DNA of 64,000 nucleotides from a virus (IMGVR_UViG_3300011805_000010:5557-69556); one strand, 5' to 3'. Shown: positions 23,325 to 47,360, numbered from the stretch's first letter. Notes: generated by a model from the letters alone, not told the origin. Program-made: numbers and translations.

Positions 23325-23337
23325 GGGAGGTGATGAT

Positions 23338-30070: not shown

Positions 30071-30179
30071 GACTGTGTAACGATATTCAAATTTGAAGGA
30101 AACCTGGACTGTTTACTATGGAGAGTGCCATCGTTATTGATAATTTCGTTCAGTAAATGGAAAAGGGGAATGACCACAT

Positions 30180-30455
30180 TTATTTCAATTGTTTTTTTAA
30201 ATAAGCTATAAATCTTTTTTGTGCTTGCTTTGTCTTCATAATCTTTTTAACACGAAAATTATTTTGAAGGTAATTTCTTACGTTACGATTTGCAAAAAAT
30301 AACTTATGATAATTATCATCTTGATAAATTTCATTAAACCAATTATATTGTTGTAATTTTTTTATATTTTTATCGATTTTTTTAGTATTTAAAGTGGTAC
30401 TGCTACCAAATGATATTCCGGACAAAATATCTGATAAAAAATCAAAATTTAACAT
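30180..30455 (-). CDS. hypothetical cargo protein, antisense to the early operon
   Basis: AAGGCG RBS; AT-rich; inverted-repeat site upstream at 30495. Confidence 0.6.
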   Translation of the reverse strand: MLNFDFLSDILSGISFGSSTTLNTKKIDKNIKKLQQYNWFNEIYQDDNYHKLFFANRNVRNYLQNNFRVKKIMKTKQAQKRFIAYLKKQLK

Positions 30456-30625
30456 GTAATCAACGCCTTATTTTAAATTACTTGTGAAAATATTTTTAAC
30501 TAACCAGGTACCTAGTTATCCTAAATCAGGTGTAGAAAATTATCAACATCTAAATATTGGTATTTTGTATTGCTAAACAAGGAAAGGATTAAGCGAAAAA
30601 ATGTACAATAACGGTAGGTGATTAT

Positions 30626-31441
30626 TTGAAGCGAGTTTTAAATTATGTCGGTTCTAAATGGAATCTGGCTAGATGGATAGTAAACCAAATGCCCGAGCAT
30701 GAGGTGTATCTTGAGCCATTCTTCGGAAGTGGTGCTGTCTTATTCAATAAGCCACCTGCGCGCATTGAAACAATAAATGATTTAGATGACAATATCGTCA
30801 ATCTATTTAAAGTGATTCGTGACAAGCCTGAACAATTGGCTCAACAAATTCAACTTACGCCCTATTCAAGACAAGAATACAATGAATCATTTACAGCATT
30901 GAAGGGTGAATTAAATTCGTTAGAAAGAGCTAGGGTATTCTTAGTTCGTTGTTGGATGTCTAGGGGAGGAAAAACAAGTGATAGAACAGGGTGGCGTCAT
31001 AATGTAGACTCGAAAACATTTAGTGCCTTAGCTGATTGGCGTAAGCTACCAGCTATCGTTTTAGAGGCAACGGAGCGATTAAAACATGTACAAATTGAAA
31101 ATTTAGATGCAGTAACTCTGATAAGCCGTTATAACAAAGAGGATTGTTTGATATACAGTGATCCACCGTATTTATTGAGCACACGTACAAAACGACACTA
31201 TGCTCATGAAATGACGGATGAACAACATGAAACGTTATTGCGAGCTTTAAATAAACATCGGGGTTTTGCCATGATTAGTGGCTACAACAACGATATGTAC
31301 AATGATATTTTACAAGGTTGGACAAGAATTTCGAAGATGGCCACAACCGAAGCTGCAAAAGAAAAATGTGAAAGTCTGTGGCTAAATCCTCAAATAATTG
31401 AGCGTGGGTATATACAACAATCGCTTTTTGAAATGGTGTAG
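30626..31441 (+). CDS. DNA adenine methyltransferase (Dam/D12 class), orphan
   Basis: YVGSKW, EPFFGSGAV and YSDPPY motifs. Confidence 0.92.
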   Translation: MKRVLNYVGSKWNLARWIVNQMPEHEVYLEPFFGSGAVLFNKPPARIETINDLDDNIVNLFKVIRDKPEQLAQQIQLTPYSRQEYNESFTALKGELNSLERARVFLVRCWMSRGGKTSDRTGWRHNVDSKTFSALADWRKLPAIVLEATERLKHVQIENLDAVTLISRYNKEDCLIYSDPPYLLSTRTKRHYAHEMTDEQHETLLRALNKHRGFAMISGYNNDMYNDILQGWTRISKMATTEAAKEKCESLWLNPQIIERGYIQQSLFEMV

Positions 31442-31451
31442 GGGCGCAAAT

Positions 31452-31657
31452 ATGTGTGAAAAAGTTTGCTGGACTTGCGGACATTTTGCTTTTGGTGCTT
31501 TGTAACAGGTGAATACAACAATACAGTTAAAGTAGATGACACATGCGACAAATGGTGTCCAGAAGGAACTCAAGGCATTGTAACAGAATATGGTTACGAT
31601 GATGGAAAAAATGAAGAGTGGCTAAAAGATGATATGTCATGTCTAATCTTTAGTTAA
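31452..31657 (+). pseudogene. small Cys-rich phage gene, probably frameshifted near 31483
   Basis: MCEKVCWTCGH joins FCFWCFVTGEY...CDKW in another frame. Confidence 0.45.
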
Positions 31658-31679
31658 AGCAGTATAAAAGGATTGTTTA

Positions 31680-31919
31680 TTAGTGCTTCATTAAGTAAAA
31701 ATAAATTGCTATTAAATAAATGACTATGTATATCACTGCCCAAATTTTATAAATAAACATTAAGCAACCTTTTTCACTTTTAAAGATAAGTAATACTAGA
31801 AGAGCTATAATAACTTGCCATATAAATAAAGGACTGTAGGTTAATTGAGCTAGTAAACTAGTCAAAGGTTGTTCTGCTAAATCAGTCATATTGCCTCCGA
31901 ATAAAGATAATGAAATCAA
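31680..31919 (-). CDS. small 2-TM membrane protein (cargo)
   Basis: hydrophobic; bounded by half-sites at 31649 and 31981. Confidence 0.6.
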   Translation of the reverse strand: MISLSLFGGNMTDLAEQPLTSLLAQLTYSPLFIWQVIIALLVLLIFKSEKGCLMFIYKIWAVIYIVIYLIAIYFYLMKH

Positions 31920-32039
31920 TAAATTATATCTTTATTCTAAATAAGAATCCATGGAAAGTGTTGGAGATAAAATGAGCTCTGTTAGTTAAAAAGAAAAGAG
32001 TCTAATGAACAATCTGAGGAAAATAAGCAGAAAGAGCGA

Positions 32040-32276
32040 CTATAATATCGCTCTAAAAAACTCATAAAATCCCATATTCATAGGGATTGCCCATATAAAG
32101 AAACCGAGTAGGGCAATTGGGCCAATAAAGAAATTATATATCTTTGTCGGCAAGATTTTTCCGAATAACGTTTTGTAGATTGCTACGCAAACTACCATTA
32201 CTACCGGTAGTAATATCATTGGTGGTATAAAAAATAAAAGACTTCCACCAAGTGATATATCTGAAAATATGTTCAT
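32040..32276 (-). CDS. small 2-TM membrane protein (cargo)
   Basis: GAGGT RBS; two hydrophobic helices. Confidence 0.7.
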   Translation of the reverse strand: MNIFSDISLGGSLLFFIPPMILLPVVMVVCVAIYKTLFGKILPTKIYNFFIGPIALLGFFIWAIPMNMGFYEFFRAIL

Positions 32277-32402
32277 TGAATTACCTCGTTATGTATTTTG
32301 TGTAAATTGTACCATAAAAAAAGCTGCAGCGTCGTTACTCGCTACAGCACGTCTCTTATTCCATATTCGTATCAGCATTATAACACATAGGAGGGCTGAA
32401 CT

Positions 32403-32822
32403 ATGTTAAAAGAAAGATTACAACTAAATCGCTACCAGCTAGACAAGGCAATTAAAAATTACCACCACAATATGCGTAGGTATATGAGAATGAAAGACGA
32501 GCTGGTTTCATTGACTGCGACAGCATCTACAGGGAAATATGGTATTGAGGCAATAATGCCAAAACCAGTTGGTAGTTCAAGTGATCCAGTTTACGCGCAT
32601 GTTCAAATCAGAGCGTCTCGTGTGTTTCGTTTAAAAAAAATCAAAGATGAGCTATTGTTGGTGCAAAATTTAACGAAAAAGGTTTCTGGTGATATTGAGC
32701 AAGAGGTGCTTTTCTGGTTGTTAGAGGGTATGCCTTTGCGTTGTATTGGTGCAAAGCTTAATATTAGCCATACAAGCGTACAGCGAGTGCGTGAGCGGAT
32801 ATTAGACCTGATGTTAAAGTGA
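32403..32822 (+). CDS. RinA/ArpU-like late transcription activator
   Basis: AGGAGG RBS; C-terminal HTH LEGMPLRCIGAKLNISHTSVQRVRE. Confidence 0.75.
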   Translation: MLKERLQLNRYQLDKAIKNYHHNMRRYMRMKDELVSLTATASTGKYGIEAIMPKPVGSSSDPVYAHVQIRASRVFRLKKIKDELLLVQNLTKKVSGDIEQEVLFWLLEGMPLRCIGAKLNISHTSVQRVRERILDLMLK

Positions 32823-32916
32823 TGTAATATTTTGCCTTCAAAAAATCCCCCCTTCTTTATATTAATTGGAAGAGGGGATATTAAGGTTATATTATTATTT
32901 TAACCAAAAATAATTT

Positions 32917-33912
32917 TTATTTTGATATAATCTTTATTCCACTATAAACTAGAGTGTCATCAATATAAATTCGCACTCTCGCTTTAGTAATACTTTCTAA
33001 TCTACTTTTAGAAAAATGAGGTAAAATAATTTTTTCTTGTAAAAACTTATATTCTTCTTCAAAACCAGAATTTATTACTTCACCTGTTATCTCACTTAAT
33101 TCAATATAAAATCTTCGATTATAGAAATTAGGATTGATAAATTTTACATTTACTGTTTCTAATCCTAGTTCGACTGATTCTATAATTAAATAATTATTTA
33201 TGAACATATTTTGAAAAGCCTCAGGCTTTATAATGCCTATTTTATCGTAATATTTTGCAACTTTATTTTCTGGTAGTAAGTCTACTAGTGTTTCTTTTTC
33301 AGCATTTGTACGACATACAATTAAAACCAAATCATTTAAATCGCACTGTTGAGGTATGATTAGCTCAGCTTGACGGTTTTTCTTAATAAAATACTCAGTT
33401 TCAGGATTATAAGAACCACTGTGATAGATATACTTGAAAGGTGCATTTTCAAATTCATTAGGTGTGTTATATATATCTACATTATTGCTAGCTAATCCTT
33501 CATATGTAAATTGAGAATCCTCTCTATCGAGCATTTTTACAATATCAAATAATAAAAAAATAGGAACCGGGCAATGGGCTAAATGGCTAGTATGTATTTC
33601 CTCTTTTGCCCTAATGCCCTCATTATGAAATTGTGTAGGTGTTAAAGGACGAAAATAAAATCTCACATAGTCTTTTATATCATTTTCAGTACTGTCTATT
33701 ACCGGTATACTTGCATTATTATTTTTCATGAGATTTAATTGAAGTGCCATTTTCCTACTGTAGATATTCCCCGTCTCTAATATTTTGGCAATATTATTTA
33801 CATCACTGAAATGATAAACGTAATTTTTCCACCATTCGCAATTATAAGGTAAAAATTTCGTTACAAGATCACTATTTAAAATATTAGCGTATGTTAAAAT
33901 AGATTTATTCAA
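32917..33912 (-). CDS. darT: DarT ssDNA thymidine ADP-ribosyltransferase (DUF4433) with a C-terminal extension
   Basis: YVYHFSDVNN, VRFYFRPLTPTQF and RQAELIIP motifs. Confidence 0.88.
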   Translation of the reverse strand: MNKSILTYANILNSDLVTKFLPYNCEWWKNYVYHFSDVNNIAKILETGNIYSRKMALQLNLMKNNNASIPVIDSTENDIKDYVRFYFRPLTPTQFHNEGIRAKEEIHTSHLAHCPVPIFLLFDIVKMLDREDSQFTYEGLASNNVDIYNTPNEFENAPFKYIYHSGSYNPETEYFIKKNRQAELIIPQQCDLNDLVLIVCRTNAEKETLVDLLPENKVAKYYDKIGIIKPEAFQNMFINNYLIIESVELGLETVNVKFINPNFYNRRFYIELSEITGEVINSGFEEEYKFLQEKIILPHFSKSRLESITKARVRIYIDDTLVYSGIKIISK

Positions 33913-33999
33913 TATAGTCCACCCCTAATTACCTATTAATAATAATGTATACTATATTATCATATAAAAGGTATTAATATCCATAAGAGGAGTGTTAAA

Positions 34000-35043
34000 A
34001 TGTTAGAATTTAAAAAAATTGACTTTTTTAGTGAAATAAATAACTATGATGCTATTGTAAATACAGTTAATTCTGTTGGTGTTATGGGAAAAGGTATTGC
34101 TCTTGAATTTAAAAAAAGGTATCCAGAGAATTTTATAGAGTATAAAAAAGCCTGTCAGTCAAAAGAATTAAAAATAGGGAAAAGCTTGGTTTTCCCTATT
34201 GAAGATGAATTAATACATACTAAATTTATAATTAATTTCCCTACTAAAGTACATTGGAGAAATCCTTCAAAAATTGAATATATTGAAGAAGGTTTAAATG
34301 ATTTAGCCGAAATTATCCGAGACAAGGAAATTAAATCTATTTTAATGCCTGCATTAGGATGTGGTAATGGAAATCTTGATTGGGATATTGTAAAACCTTT
34401 AATTAAGAAAAAACTGGATCACTTAAATGATATTAGAATAACTGTTATTGAGCCCAAAACAACAGCCAATACAAAACCAAAGAAACCAAGACTAACGATA
34501 ACTAGGAAAAAGTTGCTACTTTTAATGAATGATTATAATAAAAGTTCAACTAGTAGTAGTTTAATAACATATAAAGAAGTAAACTTATTAAGTTATTTAC
34601 TCACATATGTAGATCCAAAATTAAACCTTGATTTTTCACTCTCATCAGTTGGGCCATATTGTAAAGATATTAATTCTATTTTACTTAGTTTGAATGGATA
34701 TTATATTAGCCCGCAAAAAAACAATACATCGGGAAATTCAACACCTATTAAAGTTAATACAATAAATTTTCCGAAAAAAACAGAAGTTATACAAGATAAA
34801 GATTATTTAGAAGTAAAAGAGCTTATAAAAGGTTTTGAAAGCCCTACTGAATTAATGTTACTTTGTGTAGTGCATTGGTTTAAATTTAATGAGGGCGCAC
34901 CGGAAGAGAATCTGTTGAATAAAGTTCATGATTGGTTAAAATCTAGCTCCGGTTTAGATGTAGAAGATAAATTAATTAATAAAGCGATAAATAGAATAAT
35001 TAAAATATCAATTAACACTACAAATCTTAAATTTGATTTGTAA
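34000..35043 (+). CDS. darG: DarG macrodomain antitoxin
   Basis: AIVNTVNSVGVMGKGIA, INFPTK.HWR, PALGCGNG; C-terminal GPY motif. Confidence 0.9.
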   Translation: MLEFKKIDFFSEINNYDAIVNTVNSVGVMGKGIALEFKKRYPENFIEYKKACQSKELKIGKSLVFPIEDELIHTKFIINFPTKVHWRNPSKIEYIEEGLNDLAEIIRDKEIKSILMPALGCGNGNLDWDIVKPLIKKKLDHLNDIRITVIEPKTTANTKPKKPRLTITRKKLLLLMNDYNKSSTSSSLITYKEVNLLSYLLTYVDPKLNLDFSLSSVGPYCKDINSILLSLNGYYISPQKNNTSGNSTPIKVNTINFPKKTEVIQDKDYLEVKELIKGFESPTELMLLCVVHWFKFNEGAPEENLLNKVHDWLKSSSGLDVEDKLINKAINRIIKISINTTNLKFDL

Positions 35044-35060
35044 AGATTTTAGTGTTTAAA

Positions 35061-35137
35061 TGTCACATATGTGACAAGTGTTCCAAATGTGACAGATGTT
35101 CCAAAGGTAATATTTTAAGTAAATTATTGTGTAAAAT
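35061..35137 (+). promoter_or_regulatory. late promoter: five TGTnnCA heptamers at 9-bp period plus TAAAAT -10 box
   Basis: copies at 35061, 35070, 35079, 35088 and 35097; -10 at 35132. Confidence 0.7.
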
Positions 35138-35143
35138 AGGGGA

Positions 35144-35387
35144 GGACGGTTCGATAAGTTTTTTCCTTCTCTAGTATTAATAATACCCTTGAACTTCGTA
35201 CACTTTCGATTTATTCAGTCAAACTTACTAAACGTGCACGGAAATGCACGAGCACAATTCGATTACAGTAATTAACGTGGTAAAGAAGCTCTACCACGGT
35301 TGCTAGTAGTGAGCTAACTCGACAGTTTTACCACAATAGAATAGTAGTCGAATGCAAGACCCCTTGAGCGGATTCGAGGGGTTTTTA
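35144..35387 (+). ncRNA. candidate structured late-leader RNA ending in an intrinsic terminator
   Basis: hairpins at 35233-35250, 35276-35298 and 35319-35351; terminator at 35359-35387; no sizeable ORF seen. Confidence 0.45.
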
Positions 35388-35513
35388 TTTTGCTTTGAAA
35401 ACTGCATCAAACAGCCAAAACGCTTAATGATGAGAGGGTAGAGTTTGGTGTGGTTTTGAGAGCGGAATTTGTAGAAAAATGTTCCAAATTATTGCCTCTT
35501 AGATTATTATTAT

Positions 35514-36230
35514 TTGGGAGGTATAACAATGAAAAAAGGATATATTAGAGTTTCACATTTAATTTATATTATTATTATTGCAGTAATAATTTTGGCGTTT
35601 TTCCTAGTAATTGCATTCGGTGGCTCAACAAATGCTAGCACAACAATGGGTACAGCATCCACAGTATCTTCTTTAATTTTATCTGTCATAGCCATTGTAA
35701 TGACTATTACGGATTTAGCAGGACAAAAAGATACCATCTCGGATTTAAAAGAAACCGCTGAAAAGTTTGAAAGTAATTTAATTACTGTTAATGAGGGCAT
35801 AGAAGAGATAAATAATCTTAAAGATGACTTAATGGAATCAATGAGGTTAATTCAAGACAGTAATTTAACAGTTTTAAACGCAGTAGTTGAACTTAAGGAG
35901 AAATATAGCAAAACCGAAGAGGGAACCCAATCAAATTTGGATTCTGAAAATATTTTGAGGGATCTAGAAAACTTGAGTGACAAAATGAAAACAACCTTTT
36001 CAAATTTAAGTTTTACCGATAAATTCTACTATAATAATTTGCAAAATGGAATGAATAATAAATTAAATCGTATAATAATTGAAAGTGTTTTATTAAATAA
36101 TCCGAATATCAATAAACAAGATATTAATGAGATTAGCAGAGAAATTTTTGAAAAGTATGGAATTAAAATTCATAGACCAATTATAGAACAAGAAATAAAA
36201 AGATTTAATAATAGAACCTCAGACGTCTAG
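35514..36230 (+). CDS. membrane-anchored coiled-coil protein (2 TM)
   Basis: two N-terminal TMs; followed by a terminator at 36221-36247. Confidence 0.75.
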   Translation: MGGITMKKGYIRVSHLIYIIIIAVIILAFFLVIAFGGSTNASTTMGTASTVSSLILSVIAIVMTITDLAGQKDTISDLKETAEKFESNLITVNEGIEEINNLKDDLMESMRLIQDSNLTVLNAVVELKEKYSKTEEGTQSNLDSENILRDLENLSDKMKTTFSNLSFTDKFYYNNLQNGMNNKLNRIIIESVLLNNPNINKQDINEISREIFEKYGIKIHRPIIEQEIKRFNNRTSDV

Positions 36231-36322
36231 TTAGACGTCTTTTTTTATTTTAAAAAAGCAACTTGCATAATGGGGTGATTACAAAACAAACAAACGAAGA
36301 TGGAGGTGGTGGTGTATGAGAT

Positions 36323-37096
36323 ATGGCTAGACCAAGGAATCCGAAACGTGATGAAGCGTTTCACATGTGGGTTGAAAGCAAAGGGAAAATACTCTTGAAG
36401 GATATTGCCGAGCAGTTGAATTTATCCGATTCGCAAATCCGAAAGTGGAAGAACCAAGATAAATGGGATAACCAATTGAAAGGTAACGTTACTAAATCCA
36501 ATGGTAACGTTACTAAACGAACACGAGGTGCACCTGTTGGTAACAGCAATGCTAAGGGCCATGGTGCACCTAAGCAAAATCAGAACGCTGTTACACATGG
36601 CTTCTTTCAAAAATTTCTACCTGAAGAAACACTCGAAATCATGGAAGCGATGAATGAACGTTCTCCAGCTGATTTAATCTGGGATCAAATACAAATCCAG
36701 TATGCTGCTATCATTCGAGCTCAACGTATCATGCATGTTACTGATAAAGGTGAAATGATTAAGGAACTCAAAAAAGCAAAGTATGAATACTATCCGCGTT
36801 CTAAAGAAGAAGGTGGTGGCATGGAACAAGCTACAATTGAAGAAGAATACAATTTCCAGTTTGCTTGGGAACGACAGGCGCAACTACTCATTGCTCAATC
36901 GAGAGCAATCGGGGAGTTGCGTTCTTCTATTCGACAGTTTGTGGAGATGGCTGATGCTGATGATGAGCGTAGAATTAAACTAGAGCAGATGCAGTTGAAT
37001 ATTGATAAAACGAAATTGGAGATTGAAAAACTTGGTTCTGATCAACAAAATGAAGATATAGAAATTCAAATTGTCAGCAAAAAAAAGCAACCTTAA
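36323..37096 (+). CDS. terS: terminase small subunit (XtmA-like)
   Basis: [15 protein letters not shown]; [13 protein letters not shown] and NAVTHG motifs. Confidence 0.9.
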
Positions 37097-37527
37097 TTGG
37101 CTGCCTTTTTGTCGTTTTGGTCAATACCAAGAGCCTCTTTAAGGGAAGCTTGAAGAATCTGTGAAAAGTTTAAACCGGCATCTTCATCTGCATCTCTTAA
37201 CCAGCGAGGAAGTGTACAGTTTTTAGTTACAGCTTTATTTACAGTCTCATTCCGAAATGGGGGCATGTAAAAGTCAATAAAGATAATTCGATCTGATTCT
37301 GCATGCAAAACTATATCTGCAGGATTTGATGGATTGGGAAGAGATGTTTCATTTTCTTCTAATTCAAGGATACGAAAAGCTAACATATCTTTCGCTTTTT
37401 GGAGACCTTCTTTAATATCGTCAGCTAAAATAGCTGTTCCAGCAAAGTCAGGGAAATACATTCCAAAACCACCATCGGCTGCAGTTTCAACAACGACTGG
37501 GTAAATAAAATGATTGGCGTAACTCAA
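37093..37527 (-). CDS. hicB: HicB-family antitoxin with no hicA partner
   Basis: AGGAGGT RBS and TTG37527; IYPVVV...YFPDF...KNCTLPRWL...NFSQILQ. Confidence 0.85.
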
Positions 37528-37631
37528 TATTAATACCTCCTTTACTGAATTTATTATAACGCGCACCAGAAGCGCGTATCTATTTTGGGACAGAAAAATA
37601 TGCATATTTTTTAAGTTTAATATTTCAGGAG

Positions 37632-38915
37632 TTGAGTAAAATGACACTATTAATTGAAAAAGAAGTAAATCCACATTTCGAAAATTTTCTATTCGACTGG
37701 TGTTGTAAGACACAACTCCTCGTCGGTGGTTATGGTTCATCGAAATCCTATCATGCTGCATTAAAGATAATCTTTAAATTACTTGAGGAAAAACGTACAG
37801 CTCTAGTCGTTCGTGAAGTTTATGATACGCACAGGGAAAGTACGTTTTCTTTATTTAGTGAAATCATTGAAGATTTAGGACTAGGAGGCATTGTGAAGAC
37901 AAGTTCTTCACCTATGAGGGTTAATTTCCGAAACGGTTCAAAAATCATCTTCCGGGGCATGGATAAACCAGAAAAGCTAAAATCAATCAACAATATCTCA
38001 CTTATCTGGTTGGAGGAATGTAGTGAAATTAAGTACGCCGGTTTTAAAGAATTACTGGGTCGCTTAAGACACCCAACACTTGAGCTGTTTATCATTTTGT
38101 CAACCAATCCTGTGTCAAAAGGAAATTGGGTATATAAGCATTTCTTCAAGAATGAGATGGAAGAATACTTTGTTCTCGAAGATGAAGAATTGTACCAGCA
38201 ACGAACGATGATAGTAAACAATACGTACTATCACCACTCAACTGCTGACGATAATCTTTTCTTACCTAAAAGTTATATCGAGCAGCTAGATGAGTTGGCT
38301 CTATACGATCCCGACTTATACAGGGTTGCACGTAATGGACGCTTTGGTGTAAATGGTCAATTAGTGCTTCCTCAATTTGAGATGAAGCCCCATGAACAGG
38401 TAATGGATGAAATAGCGCTAATACGAAAACCAATTCGAAAAAACGGGATGGACTTTGGTTTTGTTGATTCCTACAATGCTGTTTTGCGCATGGTAGTGGA
38501 CCATGATAAAAAGTGGTTGTATATCTATCAGGAGTATTACAAGAGGGGTATGACGGATGACAAAACAGCTGACGAACTTGAAGCGTTAGGGCTTAAGAAG
38601 TCAATTATTAAGGCGGATAACGCCGAGCCTAAAACGATTGCTTACTTCAAACAAAGAGGCTTTCGTATGTATCCTTGTAAGAAGCTAACACGTGTAGAGA
38701 ACACAAAGAAGATGAAACGTTTCAAACGAATCATTTGTTCGGATGCTTGTGTCAATACGATTCGTGAATTGAAGGAACTTACTTTTAAGAAAGATCCTAA
38801 AACAGATGAAATCATTGAAGATGAATTTAACATCGACAGTCACTGCTTTAGTGCCATGTGGTATGGGTTAGATGACTATGAAGTAGCGAGTGTGAAAGGT
38901 GTAAATTCGAAATAG
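37632..38915 (+). CDS. terL: terminase large subunit, PBSX family
   Basis: GGYGSSKS Walker A, IWLEEC, STNP and DFGF nuclease motifs. Confidence 0.95.
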
Positions 38916-38927
38916 GGAGGCTTCAGC

Positions 38928-40331
38928 ATGAACGAATATATCCAATACATCGATGAGAATGGTATTTCGCCTTTATTAATTGAGAAGTTAGTAAAAGAAA
39001 CACAAGCAGAACGAAATAAACGATTACTAAACTACAACCGCTATAAAGCTGAAGCAGTGCCCATTTTAACACGTAAACCTGCAGACTATGCCCAAGGTAA
39101 TGCACATGTGCAACGAGTAGATGATAAGGTGAACAACACGCTCAATAATCCACTTGATGCTGAAATTGTAGACACAAAAGTAGGATATATGTTCGGTAAT
39201 CCAATTTCATATGTAGTAGATAAGCAAGCTCAAAGCCTTAAGTCATTAACAGAGGCCATTGAGCTTTTTAATTTGCGTAATTCGATTGATGATTTAGATA
39301 GTGAATCAGGAAAGAAAACGGCTATTTGTGGCTATTCTGCTCGGTTACTTTACATTGACACTGAAGGAAATGAACGTGCAATGGTAATTGATCCGTGGGA
39401 AACAATCATTCTTTCTGAAACTGGAGAGGTAAGTGAACCTAAATATGGATTTCGCTATTTTAAAAGCGCGGAACTGAATGCTGAAGGTGAAAAGGTAGAA
39501 ATTGAGCAGCTGGTATTTTACGATGCTACAACTGAAAAAGTCTATACACGTGCAGATAAAGATTCACCATTTGTACTGAAAGATGAGCGCAAGCATTTAT
39601 TCGACTACTGTCCTTTATTTGGGATTTCAAATAATGAGGAGCTGCAAGGCGATGCGGACAAAGTCTATAACCTGATTGATGCGTACGACCGCACTCTATC
39701 AGATGCATCGAACGAGATTGAACAGTGGCGATTAGCGTATTTGGTACTGAAAGGTGTTGGAATGGACGAAGAAGATGCACAGAAGGTAGCGCGCACTGGC
39801 ATTTTCGAGTTAATGGACAAGGATGACGACATTAAATACCTAACCAAAGAAGTCAATGACCAAATGATTGAGAATCATCTAAATCGCTTAGAAGAGAATA
39901 TCATGCGATTAGCTAAAAGCGTGAACTTTAGCGATGAAGCGTTTGCCGGTAACACAAGTGGTGTGGCGATGAAGTTTAAACTCATGGCACTTGAGAACAA
40001 ATGCAAAACAATGGAGCGTAAGTTTACTACTGCTCTACGCTATCAATTCAAAGTGTTATGCAGCGCCTGGGCAAAGAAAGGAATCTGTTTGAAAGATGAT
40101 TACTTGAAATTATGGTTCGAGTACAAGCGAAATGTTCCTATGGATTTATTATCCGAGGCACAGGCATCACAAGCATTAAAAGGGCTAGTGTCAGAGCGAA
40201 CACGTCTTTCTAAGATGTCGATTGTGGATGATGTGGACTATGAGTTGAAAGAGATGGAGAAGGACACTAAGGTGTATGGCAAAGATTTAGAGGATTTGGA
40301 TGACGATCCTGAAGAAGTGGATAAACAATGA
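38928..40331 (+). CDS. portal protein, SPP1 gp6-like
   Basis: VDTKVGYMFGNPI, LIDAYD and SGVAMKFKL motifs. Confidence 0.95.
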   Translation: MNEYIQYIDENGISPLLIEKLVKETQAERNKRLLNYNRYKAEAVPILTRKPADYAQGNAHVQRVDDKVNNTLNNPLDAEIVDTKVGYMFGNPISYVVDKQAQSLKSLTEAIELFNLRNSIDDLDSESGKKTAICGYSARLLYIDTEGNERAMVIDPWETIILSETGEVSEPKYGFRYFKSAELNAEGEKVEIEQLVFYDATTEKVYTRADKDSPFVLKDERKHLFDYCPLFGISNNEELQGDADKVYNLIDAYDRTLSDASNEIEQWRLAYLVLKGVGMDEEDAQKVARTGIFELMDKDDDIKYLTKEVNDQMIENHLNRLEENIMRLAKSVNFSDEAFAGNTSGVAMKFKLMALENKCKTMERKFTTALRYQFKVLCSAWAKKGICLKDDYLKLWFEYKRNVPMDLLSEAQASQALKGLVSERTRLSKMSIVDDVDYELKEMEKDTKVYGKDLEDLDDDPEEVDKQ

Positions 40332-41338
40332 ATCAACAAGAGATTAATAAAATCCTAGATGAACTGGAGAAGAAGGCGGAAAAAGACATTGAAGTGGTCT
40401 TTAACAAGCGGTTAAAAGCTATCCTCGACCAAATGCTGCAGATGCATCGTAAGTTTGGTAAGAATGGTGAAGCGACTTGGACTGACGTTAATAAATACAA
40501 TCGCTTCAATCAGGAAATGAAGCTAATTGCTCAAGAGCTCAATGCGGATTATAAAGCAATTATTAAGCTAATAAGAGAGTCAAAGGAACGACTTTACATT
40601 GAGAGGTATTTGATGATGGCCTACCTTTTACAACAGTCTACAGGTGAGGAAATGGGCTTTGTATTGCCTTCAGTTGAAACAGCTCTAACTAATCCAGTTG
40701 AGTTTTTAACACTTCCGAAGGTATTTGAAGCCCATAGGAATGACATTATTAGACGACTAAACATCGAGATAGCACAAAGCCTACAAGCCGGCGAAAGCTA
40801 CACTGAAATGGCACATAGGATTGAGAACGCTATGGGATGGACCAAGAAGAAGGCTATCCTTGTTGCTCGTACAGAAGGTGGCCGAGTACGATCGCAAGCA
40901 GATTTAGCTGTAGAAGAACAGGTGGGTAAATCCGTTCGGTTAACAAAGGTTTGGATGTCGTCACTTGATACGAGAGTTCGCAAATCACATAGAAAGCTAG
41001 ATGGGCAGAAAGCTGATAAAGACGGCTACTATCACTATGGTAAGTGGAAATCAAAAGCGCCAAGACTTTGGGGTATTGCATCTATGGATATTCAGTGCCG
41101 GTGTCATTCAATTTACTTGGTAAACGGTAAATTTCCTGAATATAGACGAGGAAGAGACTACATGGATGACACGTACCAAAAGAAATTAGCAGCTCGTATA
41201 GACGCTTACATGGAGGATTTAGGGCTGACGTATAGAAAAGCGTTTAACAAAGCATATAAGGAAGTTAAGCCACCTAGTGTGACGATACCTTATGTCAGTT
41301 ATAACGAGTGGAGAAAGAAGTTTAGTGGAGAAGGATAG
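40328..41338 (+). CDS. minor head protein, SPP1 gp7/Mu gpF-like
   Basis: VARTEG, KVWMSSLD.R.R..H..LDG and CRC motifs. Confidence 0.9.
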   Translation: MNQQEINKILDELEKKAEKDIEVVFNKRLKAILDQMLQMHRKFGKNGEATWTDVNKYNRFNQEMKLIAQELNADYKAIIKLIRESKERLYIERYLMMAYLLQQSTGEEMGFVLPSVETALTNPVEFLTLPKVFEAHRNDIIRRLNIEIAQSLQAGESYTEMAHRIENAMGWTKKKAILVARTEGGRVRSQADLAVEEQVGKSVRLTKVWMSSLDTRVRKSHRKLDGQKADKDGYYHYGKWKSKAPRLWGIASMDIQCRCHSIYLVNGKFPEYRRGRDYMDDTYQKKLAARIDAYMEDLGLTYRKAFNKAYKEVKPPSVTIPYVSYNEWRKKFSGEG

Positions 41339-41404
41339 TCTTATGCACACGTAGTGCTAGAAGCAGATGCAATATAAAAATCAAAAAATTAAAGGAGCGG
41401 AAAA

Positions 41405-41554
41405 ATGGAATATAAATCAATAAATGAAATGTCAGTTGAAGAAATACTCCGCCAACAACTAGTATTGTTAGCGGAGCGATCTCAATCAGCGCTTGATGAG
41501 GAACTAGCGCGATTGACAAATTCAATGATAGAAATAGCAAATTACTTAGAATGA
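41405..41554 (+). CDS. 49-aa small protein, not in ORF track
   Basis: AAAGGAG RBS; MEYKSINEMSVEEILRQQLVLLAERS. Confidence 0.5.
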   Translation: MEYKSINEMSVEEILRQQLVLLAERSQSALDEELARLTNSMIEIANYLE

Positions 41555-41894
41555 GAATTTTTTCCCTTTCTTAATTTAGTATACGAGGCTTATGGAATAA
41601 ATTTTGTTTGTATAAGCATCATTAATTTAGTTCTTGAATTAAAGCATGATAAAAATCACCTCATTAGTTTTTCTTAGAGGTGGTTTCGTTATTGGTTATA
41701 TGTGTTAAAATTGAATCGGTTCGGAAGTTTTGTTTAAATTTTATTCAACAATCGGGCGCGATTCTGTAATAAGAATCAGCGCTCGGTTTCTTTATAGGAT
41801 CAGATTGTGAATTAACGGTTCTAGTCAGATTTATGTGGATTTTACCATGGTAAGAAAAGAAAAGTCCCCAACCGACACTTTGGGAAGGTTATAC

Positions 41895-41921
41895 TTCAAC
41901 TAAAGACAAGGTTTAGTTGAA
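41895..41921. repeat. perfect cassette-type inverted repeat TTCAACTAAA-N7-TTTAGTTGAA
   Basis: related copies at 30495, 31649, 31981, 42346, 44612, 44736, 45219 and 47085. Confidence 0.75.
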
Positions 41922-41983
41922 TAAAGAAACAAGATGAAACAGGTTACCGAATATTTACATACGTTATATAAAGGAGGCTGTAT

Positions 41984-42334
41984 ATGCGATTACTATCTAC
42001 TGTTCTTATAATATTCTTAATACCTTTTATATTAATTGGCTGTTCAGGAGGTCCTGGTCAGAATGAATGGGGAGTGTTAAGTAAGGAACAAGTATTAAAG
42101 CTAAATCCAGATGCAGACATCTTTGAATTTGATGGGAGAGTTTATAAAACGGGTATAGATTGGATTGAAGAGGAAGAATTAATAAAAGATGAACAAATAG
42201 GGGAAATATCTGAAGGGATGGCAAATAAATTACCAGTTGGTGCAAAGATATTTTCTTCAAAAGAAAGTAGAGATATTTTGATTGTTGAGTATGATGGGAA
42301 AGAAAAGAGGTACTTGCTTCAAGTTGGCGAATAG
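41984..42334 (+). CDS. lipoprotein (cargo)
   Basis: lipobox LIGC; AAGGAGG RBS; flanked by two inverted-repeat sites. Confidence 0.85.
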   Translation: MRLLSTVLIIFLIPFILIGCSGGPGQNEWGVLSKEQVLKLNPDADIFEFDGRVYKTGIDWIEEEELIKDEQIGEISEGMANKLPVGAKIFSSKESRDILIVEYDGKEKRYLLQVGE

Positions 42335-42487
42335 GTTTATTTTTCTTCAACTAACGGATGCTTCGTTCAATAATGATTTATATCGTATACGCGTACACCA
42401 AAAAGTCACGAATGTTGTTAAATCAACGTTTGTGACTTTTCTTGTGACATTTTTTATTCAGAGAGCAATTTGACTGGCTAAGTATTA

Positions 42488-42859
42488 TTAATTTTCATGT
42501 TTTAAAATTTCCCAAATATCACGTAGTCTCTTAACTGCTTCTTCTTTCGAGTAAGGAAGTTCTTTGTAAAACTTCTGTAGTTCTGGATTGTTAGCAAAGG
42601 CTTGAAAGTCTGCATCTTCTTCTTGAGGAGCAATTTTTTGTTTTTCTGTGCGACCAAGAAGGTAATCTATTGAAACATCAAAAAGTTTAGCGATACTACT
42701 TAAAGTGTCTATAGGAGGCATTTTTGTGCCATTTTCATAAGCTGTATAAGTAGTTCTTGCAACACCTATTTCTTTAGCAACAAATGATTGGGTATATTCA
42801 GGCTTTGATTTCTTTATATTTTCACGAACCTTTTTTAAACGTTGTGCAAGAATATCCAT
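42488..42859 (-). CDS. second CI-like XRE repressor
   Basis: YTQSFVAKEIGVARTTYTAYENG; divergent from a cro-like gene. Confidence 0.88.
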   Translation of the reverse strand: MDILAQRLKKVRENIKKSKPEYTQSFVAKEIGVARTTYTAYENGTKMPPIDTLSSIAKLFDVSIDYLLGRTEKQKIAPQEEDADFQAFANNPELQKFYKELPYSKEEAVKRLRDIWEILKHEN

Positions 42860-42906
42860 TTATACGCACATCCTTAAATATAATTTGGCTACTTATGATT
42901 GTATAT

Positions 42907-43032
42907 GTTACCTAAAGGAACTTCTATATTTAATTATTTATTGTTCCTTAAAGAAACTTTAATATTCGAAAATCATTGAAATGTTCCTTAAAGGAACTTA
43001 TGATTAAATTAATTAATGTTCCTAAAAGGAAC
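42907..43032. promoter_or_regulatory. four 15-bp palindromic operators GTTCCTT-A-AAGGAAC
   Basis: copies at 42907, 42943, 42983 and 43018. Confidence 0.88.
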
Positions 43033-43051
43033 TTTTGAAAGGGGAGAGGTT

Positions 43052-43261
43052 ATGAGAAAATGGCTGAAACAGATCCGAATAGCTCAAGGAATAAAACAGG
43101 AAGAAATAGCTCATTCTGTGGACATTTCACGTGGGTATTATGCAAACATTGAACGGGGTGAAAAAACTCCATCAGTAGAAGTGGCGAGAAAAATAGCAGC
43201 TTATCTAAAATTTGATTGGACAAAATTCTTTGTACAAGAAAAGGAGGAAGTAAATTTATGA
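43052..43261 (+). CDS. second Cro-like XRE protein
   Basis: IKQEEIAHSVDISRGYYANIERGEKTPS. Confidence 0.85.
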   Translation: MRKWLKQIRIAQGIKQEEIAHSVDISRGYYANIERGEKTPSVEVARKIAAYLKFDWTKFFVQEKEEVNL

Positions 43262-44040
43262 ATCTTAAATTAGCAACACAAAATCGATTTAATTCAGTTA
43301 TGTGTGATTTTTACCAAAATGAAAACAATGAAGTATTTATGACAATTAACCAGATAGCTCAGGCGCTTGAATATGCAAGTAAAAAGGGAGTTGAAAATTT
43401 AGTAGCTAATAATGAGTACCTTAGAGATGAAGAATTTTCGACTATTGCAAAGGTATCTACAGGTACCCACGGAAAAGGGGGTACCCAAGAAACCCGTATT
43501 TTTACTGAGGATGGTATATATGAAGTAACAATGTTATCTAAACAACCTAAAGCAAAAGTATTTAGAGCTTTTGTTCGAAAGACACTTAAAACTTTACGTA
43601 AAGGTGAAATGATTTTAGTTCAACCCCAAAACGTAGATACTAAACTTGAGGTACAACGTATGCGAGCTGAGGCAATGTTGAATAACAGTCGTACACGCCA
43701 AGCTAAGTTAATTTTGGAAATGCAGAAAAATAAAATCTTATCTCCCGTAGCTGTTGAGTTGTTACAAGTAAATGCTTTAGAGGTTTTAAGTGACCAAACA
43801 ATTGATTATCGTCCAGAAGTAAAAAAGACATATACGGCTAGTGATATTGGTTCAGAATTAGGAATTTCACCGCAAAAGGTTGGTAGTATTGCAAATAAAC
43901 ATAACCTTAAAACTGATGAATACGGTTATTTTGCTTTGGACAAGTCACCATATAGTAATAAACAAGTAGAATCTTTCCGTTATTATGAAAAAGGTCGTCA
44001 GAAGATACAAGAAATTGTCCAGGGGAAGTTGGTTAATTAA
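43258..44040 (+). CDS. BRO-N domain antirepressor
   Basis: FMTINQIAQALEY, FTEDGIYEVTMLS.QPKAKVF; C-terminal YTASDIGSELGIS. Confidence 0.85.
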   Translation: MNLKLATQNRFNSVMCDFYQNENNEVFMTINQIAQALEYASKKGVENLVANNEYLRDEEFSTIAKVSTGTHGKGGTQETRIFTEDGIYEVTMLSKQPKAKVFRAFVRKTLKTLRKGEMILVQPQNVDTKLEVQRMRAEAMLNNSRTRQAKLILEMQKNKILSPVAVELLQVNALEVLSDQTIDYRPEVKKTYTASDIGSELGISPQKVGSIANKHNLKTDEYGYFALDKSPYSNKQVESFRYYEKGRQKIQEIVQGKLVN

Positions 44041-44048
44041 TGGGGAAC

Positions 44049-44122
44049 AAAAAAAGAAAAGCCATGCTTTAAGCGGCAACTTAAAACATGACATAAATTT
44101 GAGTGACATCCACCCTTATCGT
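44049..44122 (-). ncRNA. candidate antisense RNA with a GCGGCAAC-loop terminator
   Basis: minus-strand TATAAT (44134-29) with weak -35 TTCTAA; hairpin CATGCTTTAAG-CGGCAA-CTTAAAACATG preceded by an A-tract. Confidence 0.5.
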
Positions 44123-44161
44123 ATATCTATTATAAACGAATATCGTTATTTTTAGAAGTGG

Positions 44162-44473
44162 ATGTTACTCCCAGGAGGGAGCATTGTGCAAATACCAAGT
44201 GAAAGCTGTTTACAAGCTATGATCCATTATTCAGAGTTTTATAATCTTACACCGCCACGTTCAAATGAATTTAATGACTGGTGCAAAAGTGTGGTGAATG
44301 AAATGGGTGACAGAGAAATACACCTACTTTATTTGGCGGTGAATGCTGCATTAAATAAAGGTCATGGTTGTCAAAAGTTAATGTCTATAATGTTTCAGGA
44401 ACTTCAAAGACGTAAATCAGAAATAGAGTTTTATGTAACTTATGCAAACGCATTATCACAAATCAAGACCTGA
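44162..44473 (+). CDS. hypothetical protein
   Basis: 103-aa ORF after the antirepressor. Confidence 0.6.
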   Translation: MLLPGGSIVQIPSESCLQAMIHYSEFYNLTPPRSNEFNDWCKSVVNEMGDREIHLLYLAVNAALNKGHGCQKLMSIMFQELQRRKSEIEFYVTYANALSQIKT

Positions 44474-44853
44474 AATATAAAAGTAAAAAATATTAAGGGT
44501 GATACATAATAGTCATAAATACTATGTATCACTCTTTTACATCTTGCTCAGTAATCGCAATTCATTTGGATATTTATGTTAAAACCCAAGCGAAGTTGTG
44601 ATAAAATGCACTTAAACTAACTGCGCAGGTTAGTTAAACAGTGTTGTTTAGCGTTTAATCCACCATTGAGACATATAACTCAATAACAGTTTTATAAGAT
44701 ATGTTACCAAAGAACGCTTGGCGGGCTTTGTTATATCCAACTGACGGGAAGTTTATATTAGGGTTATATTTCCTTAAAAGTATATAAAATGTAATTTAAA
44801 TTAAGTATAATTCAATTAAAGTATATAATTTCTATTAGAACTGAGGGGATTTT

Positions 44854-45195
44854 TTGAAGAATTTAATAATAGGATTATGTTTAGTATTAACCACTGGATT
44901 TCTCCTCTTTATCGTACAAGGAGATGAATTTAGAGAGAAAGAGGCTGTAAATAATATTAATGAATTGTTTTCTGGTCAAATTTTTGATGATGCACAGGAG
45001 AAATTCACTGTACATGCTATGGGGCTAAGTCCAGAAGAAAAAGTACTTACAGTTAGAATTGAAAAAACACAATACAAAGAACTAACAGAGGAATATTTTA
45101 GAGACATCTTAGATTCTCGTGATATGGAAAATTATGAACTTGAAGTTTTTGTTGATGATATAACTTTACAACCTTTACAACAAAGGGATGTGTAA
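44854..45195 (+). CDS. membrane-anchored hypothetical protein (cargo)
   Basis: GAGGGG RBS; N-terminal hydrophobic segment. Confidence 0.7.
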   Translation: MKNLIIGLCLVLTTGFLLFIVQGDEFREKEAVNNINELFSGQIFDDAQEKFTVHAMGLSPEEKVLTVRIEKTQYKELTEEYFRDILDSRDMENYELEVFVDDITLQPLQQRDV

Positions 45196-45338
45196 AAGTA
45201 TCTAGCGTAATAGGGTCTTTAGTTCAACAAGGATTTTTAAAGTATACAAATTAAATCTAACATTATGTTTTTGGTAATTTATATTAATATTAATTAGTAT
45301 ATGAAAACAGATTTTTAACTAAAGGCGGTTTATATTTT

Positions 45339-45809
45339 ATGGGAGTTTCATTATGTAAAGCAAACTTAGATGATGCAGTGACGATTCATGAAATGCAAGT
45401 TAAAGCATTTATGCCATTATTAGAAAAATACCAAGATTATGATACAAACCCTGCCAACGAATCCTTAGAAAGAATTATCGCACGGTTTAATCAAAAAACA
45501 ACAGATTATTATTTAATCAAATACTTTGAAGATACAATTGGAGGCATTAGAATTGTAAAGTTGGGCAATAATTCTTTTCGTGTCAGTCCTATATTCATAT
45601 TGCCAGAATATCAAGGAAAAGGAATAGCTCAAAAAGTCTTTGAGAAAATAGAACTGATATACCATGATGCGAAATTATGGGAGTTGGATACCATAATGCA
45701 AGAAGAAGGACTCTGTTACCTGTATGAAAAGTTAGGTTATAAAAAAACAGGTGAAATAAAGAAAATAAACGATAATATAACAATAGTGTTTTATGAAAAA
45801 TCCTATTAA
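45339..45809 (+). CDS. GNAT-family N-acetyltransferase (cargo)
   Basis: IFILPEYQGKGIA acetyl-CoA loop; LYEKLGY. Confidence 0.92.
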   Translation: MGVSLCKANLDDAVTIHEMQVKAFMPLLEKYQDYDTNPANESLERIIARFNQKTTDYYLIKYFEDTIGGIRIVKLGNNSFRVSPIFILPEYQGKGIAQKVFEKIELIYHDAKLWELDTIMQEEGLCYLYEKLGYKKTGEIKKINDNITIVFYEKSY

Positions 45810-45946
45810 TTTAGTCAAACACTCTCATTTGAGGGTGTTTTTCTATTAAAAAAATTCAATTTTTTCAGCTGAGAATATTGTTGAATCTTCCCTAATTATT
45901 TATATTTATATTGAGATGAATTTTTTATAAAGGGAGGAATTTTTTT

Positions 45947-46537
45947 ATGAAAAAGGCATTTAAGTTTGGTTGTGGTGGTATTGTAGCTTTAATTCTTTTA
46001 ATAGTCATTGTCACTTCTTGGGGTGGCGAAGATACCAATAAATCGGCGGATAAAGAAAAAGCACCTGTTACGTCTTCAACTAGTAATGAAGATAATGGGG
46101 AAAAATCTGAATCGAGTGCTGAAGAAAATGGACATGTTGGAATTGGGGAAGAGCTTATTGTAGGTAAAGTTGCTTTTAAAGTAAATTCAATTGAAGAAGT
46201 AAATGAAATTAGTGCATCTGATGGATTTATGAAGTATGAGCCCGATGCAGCAGGTGCAGTGTTTTTAACCGTCAATGTGACTGTTCGTAATGATGGAACA
46301 GAAATGATTAACACTGATTCAAGTTTCTTTAAATTAATTTCTAGTAATGGAGCTGAATATTCACCTTCAACAATAATCATAGCTGATGATAAATACTTTA
46401 CATATGAAGGAATAAATCCTGGGCTTGCTTTAACTGGTAATGTAGTGTTTGAAGTTCCACCAGGATTAATGGGCCTTGATTTACAAGTCCAGACAGGATT
46501 CTGGGGTACTGAAACAGGCATAATAAAACTAAATTAA
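45947..46537 (+). CDS. DUF4352 membrane-anchored surface protein
   Basis: N-terminal TM; FLTVNVTVRN and INPG..LTGNVVFEVP. Confidence 0.88.
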   Translation: MKKAFKFGCGGIVALILLIVIVTSWGGEDTNKSADKEKAPVTSSTSNEDNGEKSESSAEENGHVGIGEELIVGKVAFKVNSIEEVNEISASDGFMKYEPDAAGAVFLTVNVTVRNDGTEMINTDSSFFKLISSNGAEYSPSTIIIADDKYFTYEGINPGLALTGNVVFEVPPGLMGLDLQVQTGFWGTETGIIKLN

Positions 46538-46562
46538 GAGTTAAAAAAGTCACTCATTGAGT

Positions 46563-47240
46563 AACGGGTTCTGTTTTCGAGTACAAAACTTTAAAAACAC
46601 TATAAAAGGGGTATCAAATTGAAATGATTTGGATGCCTCTTTTTTATTGATATAAAGCGTTTTTTTAACAATTTTCATACGAATTGGTATATCAAATCGC
46701 ATTATTAAAAATTGATGAAGAAACATCCAAGTGAAACAGCAATAAAAATTATGGCAAATACTAAACTATTCCACAGGCCTAGCATAATAAAAGGTGAAGT
46801 ACTTTTATCTCCGTCTTTCTTGAGACCTGTGAATGTTCGCCAGGTTATTATTAGCTGCCAAATACCTATTAATAAAAAAATGAATCCAAATAAATATCTC
46901 ATATAATCACCTCCTTTATATAAAAATACCACGCTGGAAAAGCGTTATCAATGAAATTGGAATATAATGAAAAAATGTTTTATATTGTAAACATCGAAAT
47001 GAGTTTCGGTTTAGCACTAATAGTAGTACCACTATTAAAATTATCCACTGCAACTTTTTTTGGATGAAGACTAACAAATGTTTATTAAGCTAACGGGTAG
47101 TTTTAGTTAAATTTTGATTCACGAAATATCAAACCAAGTTGTACAAAAAAGGTACTGCAATTGCAGTACCTTTTAATTTGCTAATCAATTGACTTTTTAA
47201 CCTGTGATTTTGCTTTTTGTACTTCAAAACAGAACCCGTT
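46563..47240. mobile_element. 678-bp non-autonomous TIR element (MITE/MIC-like) with an 11-bp target duplication
   Basis: 26-bp terminal inverted repeats with 2 mismatches; direct repeat ACTCATTGAGT at 46552-62 and 47241-51; no transposase. Confidence 0.75.
46705..46902 (-). CDS. 65-aa 2-TM membrane protein carried by the TIR element
   Basis: AAAGGAGGTG RBS and ATG46902. Confidence 0.75.
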   Translation of the reverse strand: MRYLFGFIFLLIGIWQLIITWRTFTGLKKDGDKSTSPFIMLGLWNSLVFAIIFIAVSLGCFFINF

Positions 47241-47360
47241 ACTCATTGAGTGGCTTTTTCTTTTGTCTTTCTTCTCGCAGACGCTATAAAGAACGGGAAA
47301 AACTACTATCGAACAGTTTAGGGATTCCATCGAATAACTAAATTGGGCAAGGAGGACATC

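Follow-up and report, generated by a model that had tools for sequence, protein, structure and literature searches.

The question raised by the provirus fragment IMGVR_UViG_3300011805_000010:5557-69556, an IMG/VR provirus record of 64,000 nucleotides (nt) that is here called the window, is what a short inverted repeat is doing among the small accessory genes of its head operon. A sequence-only reading of the window had listed copies of this repeat between positions 30495 and 47111, had described them as recurring only beside small accessory genes, and had proposed that they are core sites of a tyrosine recombinase bounding gene cassettes that the prophage captured through an integron-like or pdif-like system. 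The comparison with bacterial and phage genomes reported here shows that the repeat is a member of a large, previously unremarked family, the function of which is most likely, to judge from its genomic contexts, to form the junctions in an integron-like cassette system that depends on a Xer-like recombinase. The sites of the window are read, with slightly more confidence than doubt, as degenerate junctions of cassettes captured in the head-operon hot spot of the phage. The earlier proposal is therefore retained in part, since a core site bounding small cargo genes fits a Gram-positive cassette system found elsewhere, but that system is chromosomal and host-wide rather than a prophage device.

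The consensus of the family is cTTA-TTGAACTAAC-GGGGCAG-KTTAGTTGAA-TAAG. In the genome collection a stringent form of it (AACTAACNNNNCAGKTTAGTT) matches at least 120 stretches, almost all in Planococcaceae and Bacillaceae; among the matches listed, nearly all are from Sporosarcina, Psychrobacillus, Lysinibacillus, Viridibacillus, Solibacillus and Paenisporosarcina, and some from Peribacillus, Neobacillus, Priestia and Oceanobacillus. The motif-rich genera (Psychrobacillus, Viridibacillus, Sporosarcina and Lysinibacillus) carry 10 to 77 copies per genome. In five genomes the stringent pattern was counted 69 (V. arvi), 77 (Psychrobacillus sp.), 20, 11 and 3 times, with 0 matches to a reversed control pattern in the same five, and in 2.9 million viral contigs it occurs in only 11 stretches. 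A literature search found no published description of this motif system, in agreement with the sequence-only reading, which had recognized none for Bacillaceae. One copy was also met on the 10.5-kb plasmid pA38_H3 of Sporosarcina sp. ANT_H38 (L063), a strain that has a homologue of the array recombinase described below (P0006), so that the sites are not confined to chromosomes and phages.

The chromosomal copies form gene arrays, which are scattered over several regions of a genome. In L184 approximately 24 copies lie on one strand within 20 kb, with one or two open reading frames (ORFs) per interval on the same strand, and the same co-oriented layout is found in L183 and L187-L191, which cover three genera; one (or two) genes per repeat is thus the arrangement that the proposal of cassettes had anticipated. 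The distance from the motif to the following start codon varies widely (12-226 nt). Among the cargo, GNATs are the commonest, accompanied by S-adenosylmethionine methyltransferases, GyrI-like/Cass2 proteins (PF14526), SDR proteins, an MBL-fold protein, a sigma regulator, an ABC-2 protein and many proteins without a family.

Alignment of the arrays reveals a constant order at the junctions, namely, gene stop codon, left-hand site, GC-rich hairpin with T-run, right-hand site and next gene. The left-hand site is TTCAACTAAC-GGGTGC-TTTAGTTNAA (10-6-10) and the right-hand site is TTGAACTAAC-GSGGCAG-KTTAGTTNAA (10-7-10), the latter corresponding to the motif of the sequence-only reading. The view that two inverted arms around an asymmetric spacer represent a tyrosine-recombinase-type core site is in line with the role of the motif elsewhere, where it bounds small cargo genes. 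Nearly every junction contains a hairpin and T-run of the rho-independent type. Composite junctions of 83-91 nt give single-stranded DNA folds with z-scores of −3.6 to −5.3, and a whole junction is predicted to form one long hairpin (−18.2 kcal/mol, z −5.3), in which the outer arms are paired, the spacers form an internal loop, the inner arms are paired and the terminator hairpin is the tip. The window holds isolated junction halves only.

Genes for tyrosine recombinases of approximately 279 aa lie in or beside the arrays, on the strand opposite to the nearby motif copies in 9 of 9 places. In the sample of 61 family genomes used for testing association (homologue threshold, at least 60% identity), a homologue is present in all 10 genomes with at least 10 motif copies and in 1 of the 38 that are motif-free. 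The adjacency is also fixed: in six of seven loci a motif copy is found, divergently, 64-71 nt (approx. 69 nt) upstream of the recombinase start codon, and a stretch of about 95 nt that begins at the start codon and extends to the end of TTTTACTAAC-GGGGCAG is conserved in five species, whose similarity stops at the border between spacer and right arm of this recombinase-proximal site; beyond it, everything differs. Such a pattern would be expected for a platform site (attI-like) that has recombined with different partners. The array recombinase at L183:2164-3003 (minus strand) reaches 88.8 bits on TIGR02249 (cut-off, 265) and 54.8 bits on NF011946 (cut-off, 435), values below the integron-integrase cut-offs, so that the IntI signature is absent, while its best family is the XerA-like NF040815 (224 bits, cut-off 220). 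In public records the members of this recombinase family are named only ‘tyrosine recombinase’, ‘XerD’ or ‘integron integrase’. No recombinase gene was found near the copies in L085 and L086, for which 8-kb stretches were covered. The small tyrosine recombinase of the window (566-1129, 187 aa), which had been put forward as a candidate enzyme, consists of the catalytic domain only (PF00589) and belongs to another family, being 22-24% identical to the array recombinase, so that it was set aside; the ORF preceding it, which contains in-frame stops, resembles an ArpU-type regulator.

The distribution of the motif in phages was examined with a covariance model whose 17 source copies include sites A, B and C of the window (table 1). 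In 400 kb from 20 related phage loci the model found 10 matches, all on the gene strand and all inside two variable gaps, either that between the head-morphogenesis and scaffold genes or that after an ArpU-like gene (L031). Among these loci, the phages with a minimal gap contain zero copies, from which it follows that the motif arrives with the inserted genes and is not part of the phage backbone. The first of the two gaps varies in length between 284 and 8192 bp among the 45 related phage loci compared, and is therefore a hot spot for accessory genes. The copies of related phage loci are all oriented with the genes and share a spacer that ends in CAG, an asymmetry missing from the earlier description. 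In L031 (1500-3700) four small genes form an array right after the ArpU-like gene, each with a motif copy before it and a second palindrome with a terminator after it. The cleanest site-cargo-site unit encountered in a phage is that of L054 (9595-11262, on the contig that also holds L214), where a pair of ECF sigma and anti-sigma genes has a motif copy on either side, both with the same spacer (TTGAACTAAC-GGGGCAG-GTTAGTTSAA); no empty-site relative of this unit was found when L054/L214 was compared with L216, the homology stopping at the preceding terminator.

In the window itself, the exact half-site TTYAACTAAM occurs nine times, versus 2.39 ± 1.58 expected (0 of 100 shuffles reach this number), and all nine fall within 30495-47111; with one mismatch allowed there is no enrichment (58 versus 51.6 expected). 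A full inverted-repeat scan returned only three sites with two mismatches or less, each with a 7-nt spacer (10-7-10) and all on the plus strand, which are the sites A, B and C of table 1. The element at 42346, taken alone, is non-significant in the covariance model (15.4 bits, E 0.85, hit at 42341-42375). It aligns with the sequence TTCAACTAAC-GGRWGC-TT..TTCAA found 3′ of the same lipoprotein gene in four chromosomal copies and also with the left-hand-site consensus of the array junctions, being by alignment the left-hand site of the lipoprotein unit that ends before the terminator; it was accepted in spite of its E-value because it is positionally homologous to a conserved 3′ element that follows the same gene. 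The item at 45219 (TTTAGTTCAA), which immediately follows the stop of the 113-aa gene, is matched over 45 bp in both L002 and L036 and may be the remnant of a lipoprotein-type 3′ (left-hand) element. The candidate at 30495 (four mismatches, spacer of 6, no covariance-model match at E ≤ 10) was rejected as being at chance level, and so were the single half-sites (31649, 31981, 45314) and the item at 44736, which resemble the background of 3-5 mismatches found across the whole AT-rich window. Of the copies initially listed, those at 41895, 44612 and 47085 and the degenerate one at 42346 thus stand, and the five at chance level do not. The statement that the motif is found only beside small accessory genes holds for the three real sites, all within the 6-kb island; the half-sites flanking the GNAT gene (45314 and 45810) are individually non-significant. 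Rfam 15 gave zero matches at the gathering score in the window and zero at E ≤ 5 over 41300-47400.

The clearest cassette-like unit is that of the lipoprotein gene, with the right-hand-type simple site A 62 nt upstream of it. Homologues of the lipoprotein are present in 22 of the 61 family genomes. The G057 chromosome encodes four paralogues, each with a motif 67-78 nt upstream; the next motif is found about 70 nt past the stop codon in both copies whose downstream flank was covered, and the left-hand form 3′ of these homologues is TTCAACTAAC-GGGWGC-TT.ACTTCAA. Thus, the lipoprotein family recurs with the same sites in a chromosome, and the earlier observation that the gene is bracketed by two sites is upheld, 41895 being real and 42346 homologous to the 3′ element of the four chromosomal copies. 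The module 41746-42349 is carried as a unit by contigs of two other samples, and contigs of two samples end their match at 42349; many contigs of other samples start matching at 41741-41746, where a spike in depth is also observed. This left edge coincides with a second palindrome, which is found again, next to the main motif, in L002, L019, L031, L036 and in chromosomes. The family to which it belongs, TTCAACAATC-GGGCCA-GATTGTTGAA, accompanies the main motif in the window (41744-41811), in L031, L036, L019, L081 and others, and has the outer TTCAAC/GTTGAA bases of the main motif and a GGG..CA spacer, often with a terminator hairpin inserted.

Upstream of site B a conserved context, GGATATTTATGTTAA-N14-TTGTGAtAAAATGCAC, is found that likewise stands in front of the TTAAACTAAC copies of phage loci and of many chromosomes, and that overlaps a predicted promoter-like box (TTAAAA-17-TAAAAT with TG extension, 44579-44607). 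A contig of another sample starts matching at 44565, and site B lies within a 91-bp island of homology to L036 (12312-12402) with unrelated flanks. Site C is instead inside an element bounded by inverted-repeat arms (46544-46588 and 47215-47259, 91% complementary) that enclose 626 nt. A contig of another sample joins 46548 to 47241, i.e. the element 46544-47259 is precisely absent from it, and the latter is therefore a discrete insertion into a terminator.

As to homology breakpoints, over all loci compared the ends of BLAST high-scoring segment pairs accumulate 10-20 nt from motif centres (280 of 3561 within ±20 nt versus about 1.7% expected), and cassette-sized homology blocks with motifs at their borders in both genomes are found, as in L089 versus L093 (80% over 816 bp). 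V. arenosi and V. arvi share a 2.1-kb block with 98% identity, both borders of which coincide with motif edges, the position here being immediately 5′ of the left arm. In the window, the homology of site A to L002 stops at 41903, while at site C contigs of two studies match from 46701 or 46829 to 47099 and then diverge, placing the break inside the spacer. The right border of the island, 47247, is seen again in L002, L036 and contigs of three other samples. Among the sequencing runs listed as matching the island, none covers more than about a third of it and none is of RNA. As far as breakpoints are concerned, the proposal that exchange occurs within the sites thus finds several examples at or in them, but their positions are inconsistent and some island borders are off-site.

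According to the cassette interpretation, the 27-bp inverted repeat would be the right-hand half of the junction element of a chromosomal gene-cassette system of Bacillales, the recombinase of which would insert and excise cassettes by exchanging strands at the 3′ border of the 7-nt spacer, possibly using a folded single strand as its substrate in the manner of integron integrases at attC. The 42346 element and sites A, B and C would then mark the junctions of such cassettes, most clearly in the case of the lipoprotein unit, and these cassettes would have landed in the hypervariable spot between the head-morphogenesis and scaffold genes. Since the provirus is without the cognate recombinase, further movement would need a host enzyme acting in trans, and the window copies, being degenerate, may now be only footprints.

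Several observations weigh against this interpretation. The main weakness is the inconsistent position of the presumed crossover: in the recombinase-proximal site and in site C the break falls at the 3′ border of the spacer, unlike in the V. arenosi/V. arvi block, and the island borders 42392, 44483 and 47247 coincide with no site. The spacers of sites A, B and C differ from each other (gacaagg, tgcgcag and gggtagt), a difference between partner sites that classical tyrosine recombinases would not tolerate. The single-stranded folds of the window copies are weak (−6.6, −5.4 and −0.7 kcal/mol, versus −11.2 for a chromosomal copy; the first value is that of site A, z −4.5), with no stable hairpin for site C. 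Pair counts over the composite junctions show no covariation favouring one fold over two separate hairpins, and for the 27-nt hairpin alone the covariation signal is modest, the arms being simply conserved. Each unit has its own predicted terminator, unlike the promoterless cassettes of integrons, which share a common promoter. The association between motif and recombinase may in part reflect shared ancestry of the motif-rich genomes, and the provirus has no homologue of the array recombinase. Finally, the support for recombination is comparative throughout.

Some of these features would be explained if the motif were an intergenic repeat of the repetitive extragenic palindrome (REP) or insulator type, in which a module made of terminator and hairpin ends independently transcribed accessory genes and spreads by homologous rather than site-specific recombination between its copies, much like the promoter/stem-loop cassettes of T4-type phages. 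The position of the motif directly 3′ of rho-independent terminators in most chromosomal copies, its constant co-orientation with genes, its strong conservation without covariation and the varying positions of the breakpoints around it are all consistent with such a repeat, as is the promoter-like box just upstream in one context, which could make the hairpin the 5′ end of a transcript. With REP/REPIN-RAYT systems the family shares short conserved palindromes in many intergenic copies per genome, but its strict co-orientation with genes and array layout differ from theirs, and the Y1/RAYT transposase is not associated with it (PF01797 gives 1, 0 and 2 matches in G007, G006 and G008, none at the arrays examined). 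A spreading repeat also leaves unexplained why a conserved recombinase gene is placed some 69 nt away from a variant of the site, why similarity is lost within this variant in an attI-like manner, and why motif and recombinase co-occur across genomes. This explanation is considered unlikely.

The linkage to the recombinase could alternatively be explained if the motif were the attB-like target of a small integrative element encoding the 279-aa protein, with the arrays having arisen otherwise. In L187 (14381-15365, V. arvi) the recombinase gene lies between hybrid sites, both with TTTTACTAA arms facing the gene (an N at approx. 14746 of this record splits the reading frame), many recombinase copies are fragments or pseudogenes scattered within arrays, and the identity of the family, at least 73% across many Bacillales genera, suggests horizontal spread. 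However, the conserved block is always at a fixed distance and with the same half-site, the other half varying as in repeated exchange, and dozens of unrelated co-oriented genes with the same composite junction would still need a cassette-forming mechanism, which makes a simple integration target rather improbable.

A role of the palindrome as operator for a dimeric transcription factor with a large accessory regulon appears very improbable. A 10-bp inverted repeat with strongly conserved arms 12-226 nt upstream of start codons is what an operator could look like, and a minority of copies has a −10 box (TANAAT) exactly 10 nt past the right arm (10 copies, versus 1 and 3 at two other spacings). 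This fixed geometry is found, however, in only about 10 of approximately 400 copies, the distance to the start codon is far from constant, conservation extends to the asymmetric spacer GGGGCAG, a second copy is present at the 3′ end of each gene, and the linked gene is that of a recombinase and not of a regulator. Chance palindromes in AT-rich intergenic DNA, which do account for the copies at 30495, 31649, 31981, 44736 and 45314, are refuted for sites A, B and C by their match to a family of hundreds of copies with a conserved asymmetric spacer and zero hits in the reversed control, leaving a negligible probability for this explanation.

If the cassette interpretation is thus preferred, the closest known systems are integrons. 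In an integron attC two simple sites flank a variable centre and the whole folds into a hairpin, and the consensus of the integron core is RYYYAAC/GTTRRRY. The junctions described here resemble it in their two simple sites and in the single hairpin predicted for them, their 83-91 nt comparing with 57-141 bp for attC, and their inner arms, AACTAAC/GTTAGTT, fit the core at 6 of 7 positions. Also like integrons, the arrays are long and co-oriented, with single-gene units between imperfect palindromic sites, and with a tyrosine recombinase gene divergent from the array beside a platform-specific site with a variable distal half; the cargo, rich in GNATs, Cass2/GyrI-like proteins, methyltransferases and unknowns, resembles that of sedentary chromosomal integrons. 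Differences, besides the terminators, are the recombinase (279 aa, XerA/XerD-like and without the IntI-specific signature), the spread of the arrays over several genome regions and the hosts, which are Bacillota. The platform layout, with the divergent integrase and the adjacent site heading the array, is found in the chromosomal arrays and not in the window, which contains no such gene. In pdif modules the sites are 28-bp XerC/XerD sites in alternating inverted orientation, used by the host XerC/XerD. With these and with Xer-dependent integrating elements the present system shares short arm-spacer-arm sites of the Xer type that flank small gene modules, and a Xer-like recombinase, and it differs in the direct orientation, the 10-7-10 and 10-6-10 geometry, the long arrays and the dedicated extra recombinase. 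T4-type phages carry promoter/stem-loop cassettes that bound accessory genes. The island of the window resembles these, as well as phage morons and T4-type hyperplastic regions, in having small accessory genes in a hypervariable late-operon spot, with borders made of conserved short stem-loops, terminators and, in places, promoter-like boxes; unlike T4-type boundaries, the sequence found here is present in hundreds of host-chromosome copies, is linked to a recombinase and is not phage-specific.

It is tempting to propose, tentatively and with doubt slightly outweighing conviction, that integrons have a genuine functional counterpart in Planococcaceae and other Bacillales, in which the 279-aa Xer-like recombinase captures and shuffles terminator-bearing cassettes at the composite attC-like junctions of large chromosomal arrays, and that these cassettes are exchanged with temperate phages at moron hot spots. 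In published surveys integrons were almost absent from Firmicutes, the finds being a single complete one and a small number of orphan attC clusters (PMC4889954, PMC9024848), and for other hosts there are reports of attC sites carried by phages (PMC9892861). This picture of near-absence would have to be revised if common soil Bacillales carry recombinase-linked cassette arrays of 10-77 or more sites per genome; such arrays would also explain the islands of GNATs and small unknown genes in these genomes, and would supply a new recombinase/site pair for Gram-positive genetic tools. The window suggests that such cassettes are also present in prophage hot spots, linking cassette traffic to phage transduction; if so, exchange with phages would give cassettes a viral route between hosts.

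Table 1. Positions of the sites, genes and other elements of the head operon and its accessory island, in window coordinates.
Feature	Position	Strand	Remarks
Small terminase gene	36323		gene order
Portal gene	38928		gene order
Head-morphogenesis gene	40328-41338		relatives at 83-92% in 45 phage loci
Accessory island, 6 kb	41339-47342	+	separates head-morphogenesis gene from scaffold gene
Second palindrome	41744-41811	+	TTCAACAATC...GATTGTGAA; terminator-like hairpin in spacer
Site A	41895-41921	+	TTCAACTAAA-gacaagg-TTTAGTTGAA; 0 mismatches, perfect 10-bp arms; model 43 bits
Lipoprotein gene, 116 aa	41984-42334	+	island; no Pfam family
Degenerate left-hand-type simple site	42346-42370	+	TTCAACTAAC-ggatg-CTTCGTTCAA; 3′ element of lipoprotein unit
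Divergent XRE pair and Bro-N antirepressor	42488-44040		island
Small gene	44162		island; family unassigned
Conserved context	44558-44611	+	GGATATTTATGTTAA-N14-TTGTGAtAAAATGCAC; upstream of site B
Site B	44612-44638	+	TTAAACTAAC-tgcgcag-GTTAGTTAAA; 1 mismatch; model 46.9 bits
Small gene, 113 aa	44854-45195	+	island; downstream of site B; family unassigned, no Pfam family
Possible left-hand-site remnant	45201-45227		tagggtc-TTTAGTTCAA; 3′ of 113-aa gene
GNAT acetyltransferase gene	45339-45809	+	island; Pfam PF13508, PF13673, PF00583
DUF4352 protein gene	45947		island
Element bounded by 45-nt inverted repeat	46544-47259		716 bp; holds small membrane gene and site C
Small membrane gene	46705-46905	−	island
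Site C	47085-47111	+	TTAAGCTAAC-gggtagt-TTTAGTTAAA; 2 mismatches; model 31.1 bits; most degenerate copy
Scaffold gene	47343-48023		gene order
Major capsid gene	48053		gene order

With regard to the remaining content of the provirus, no match to the phage collection was obtained by megablast for 30000-48000, and a distant search of the same collection gave one weak antirepressor match only. The divergent XRE pair and the Bro-N antirepressor form a second immunity-like module within the head operon, with four copies of the palindrome GTTCCTTAAAGGAAC between the XRE genes; L002 and L036 share this 2.1-kb block in full at 94-95% identity, and it also occurs by itself in several other samples. Three copies of ACAACATTTTGTTGT (23286-23580) are distributed around the primary repressor/cro-like pair (22809-23583) and are presumably the operators of the main lysogeny switch. 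The site motif was also considered as the operator of either repressor, and was discarded because ACAACATTTTGTTGT and GTTCCTTAAAGGAAC are different sequences from it. Finally, a DarT-family gene (PF14487, minus strand, 331 aa) is placed head to head with a macro-domain gene (PF01661, plus strand, 347 aa) at 32917-35043, in what looks like a toxin-antitoxin or defence pair of the DarTG type; the pair occupies the slot between the ArpU-like gene and the terminase, the same slot that in the related phage L031 is taken by the four-cassette array.

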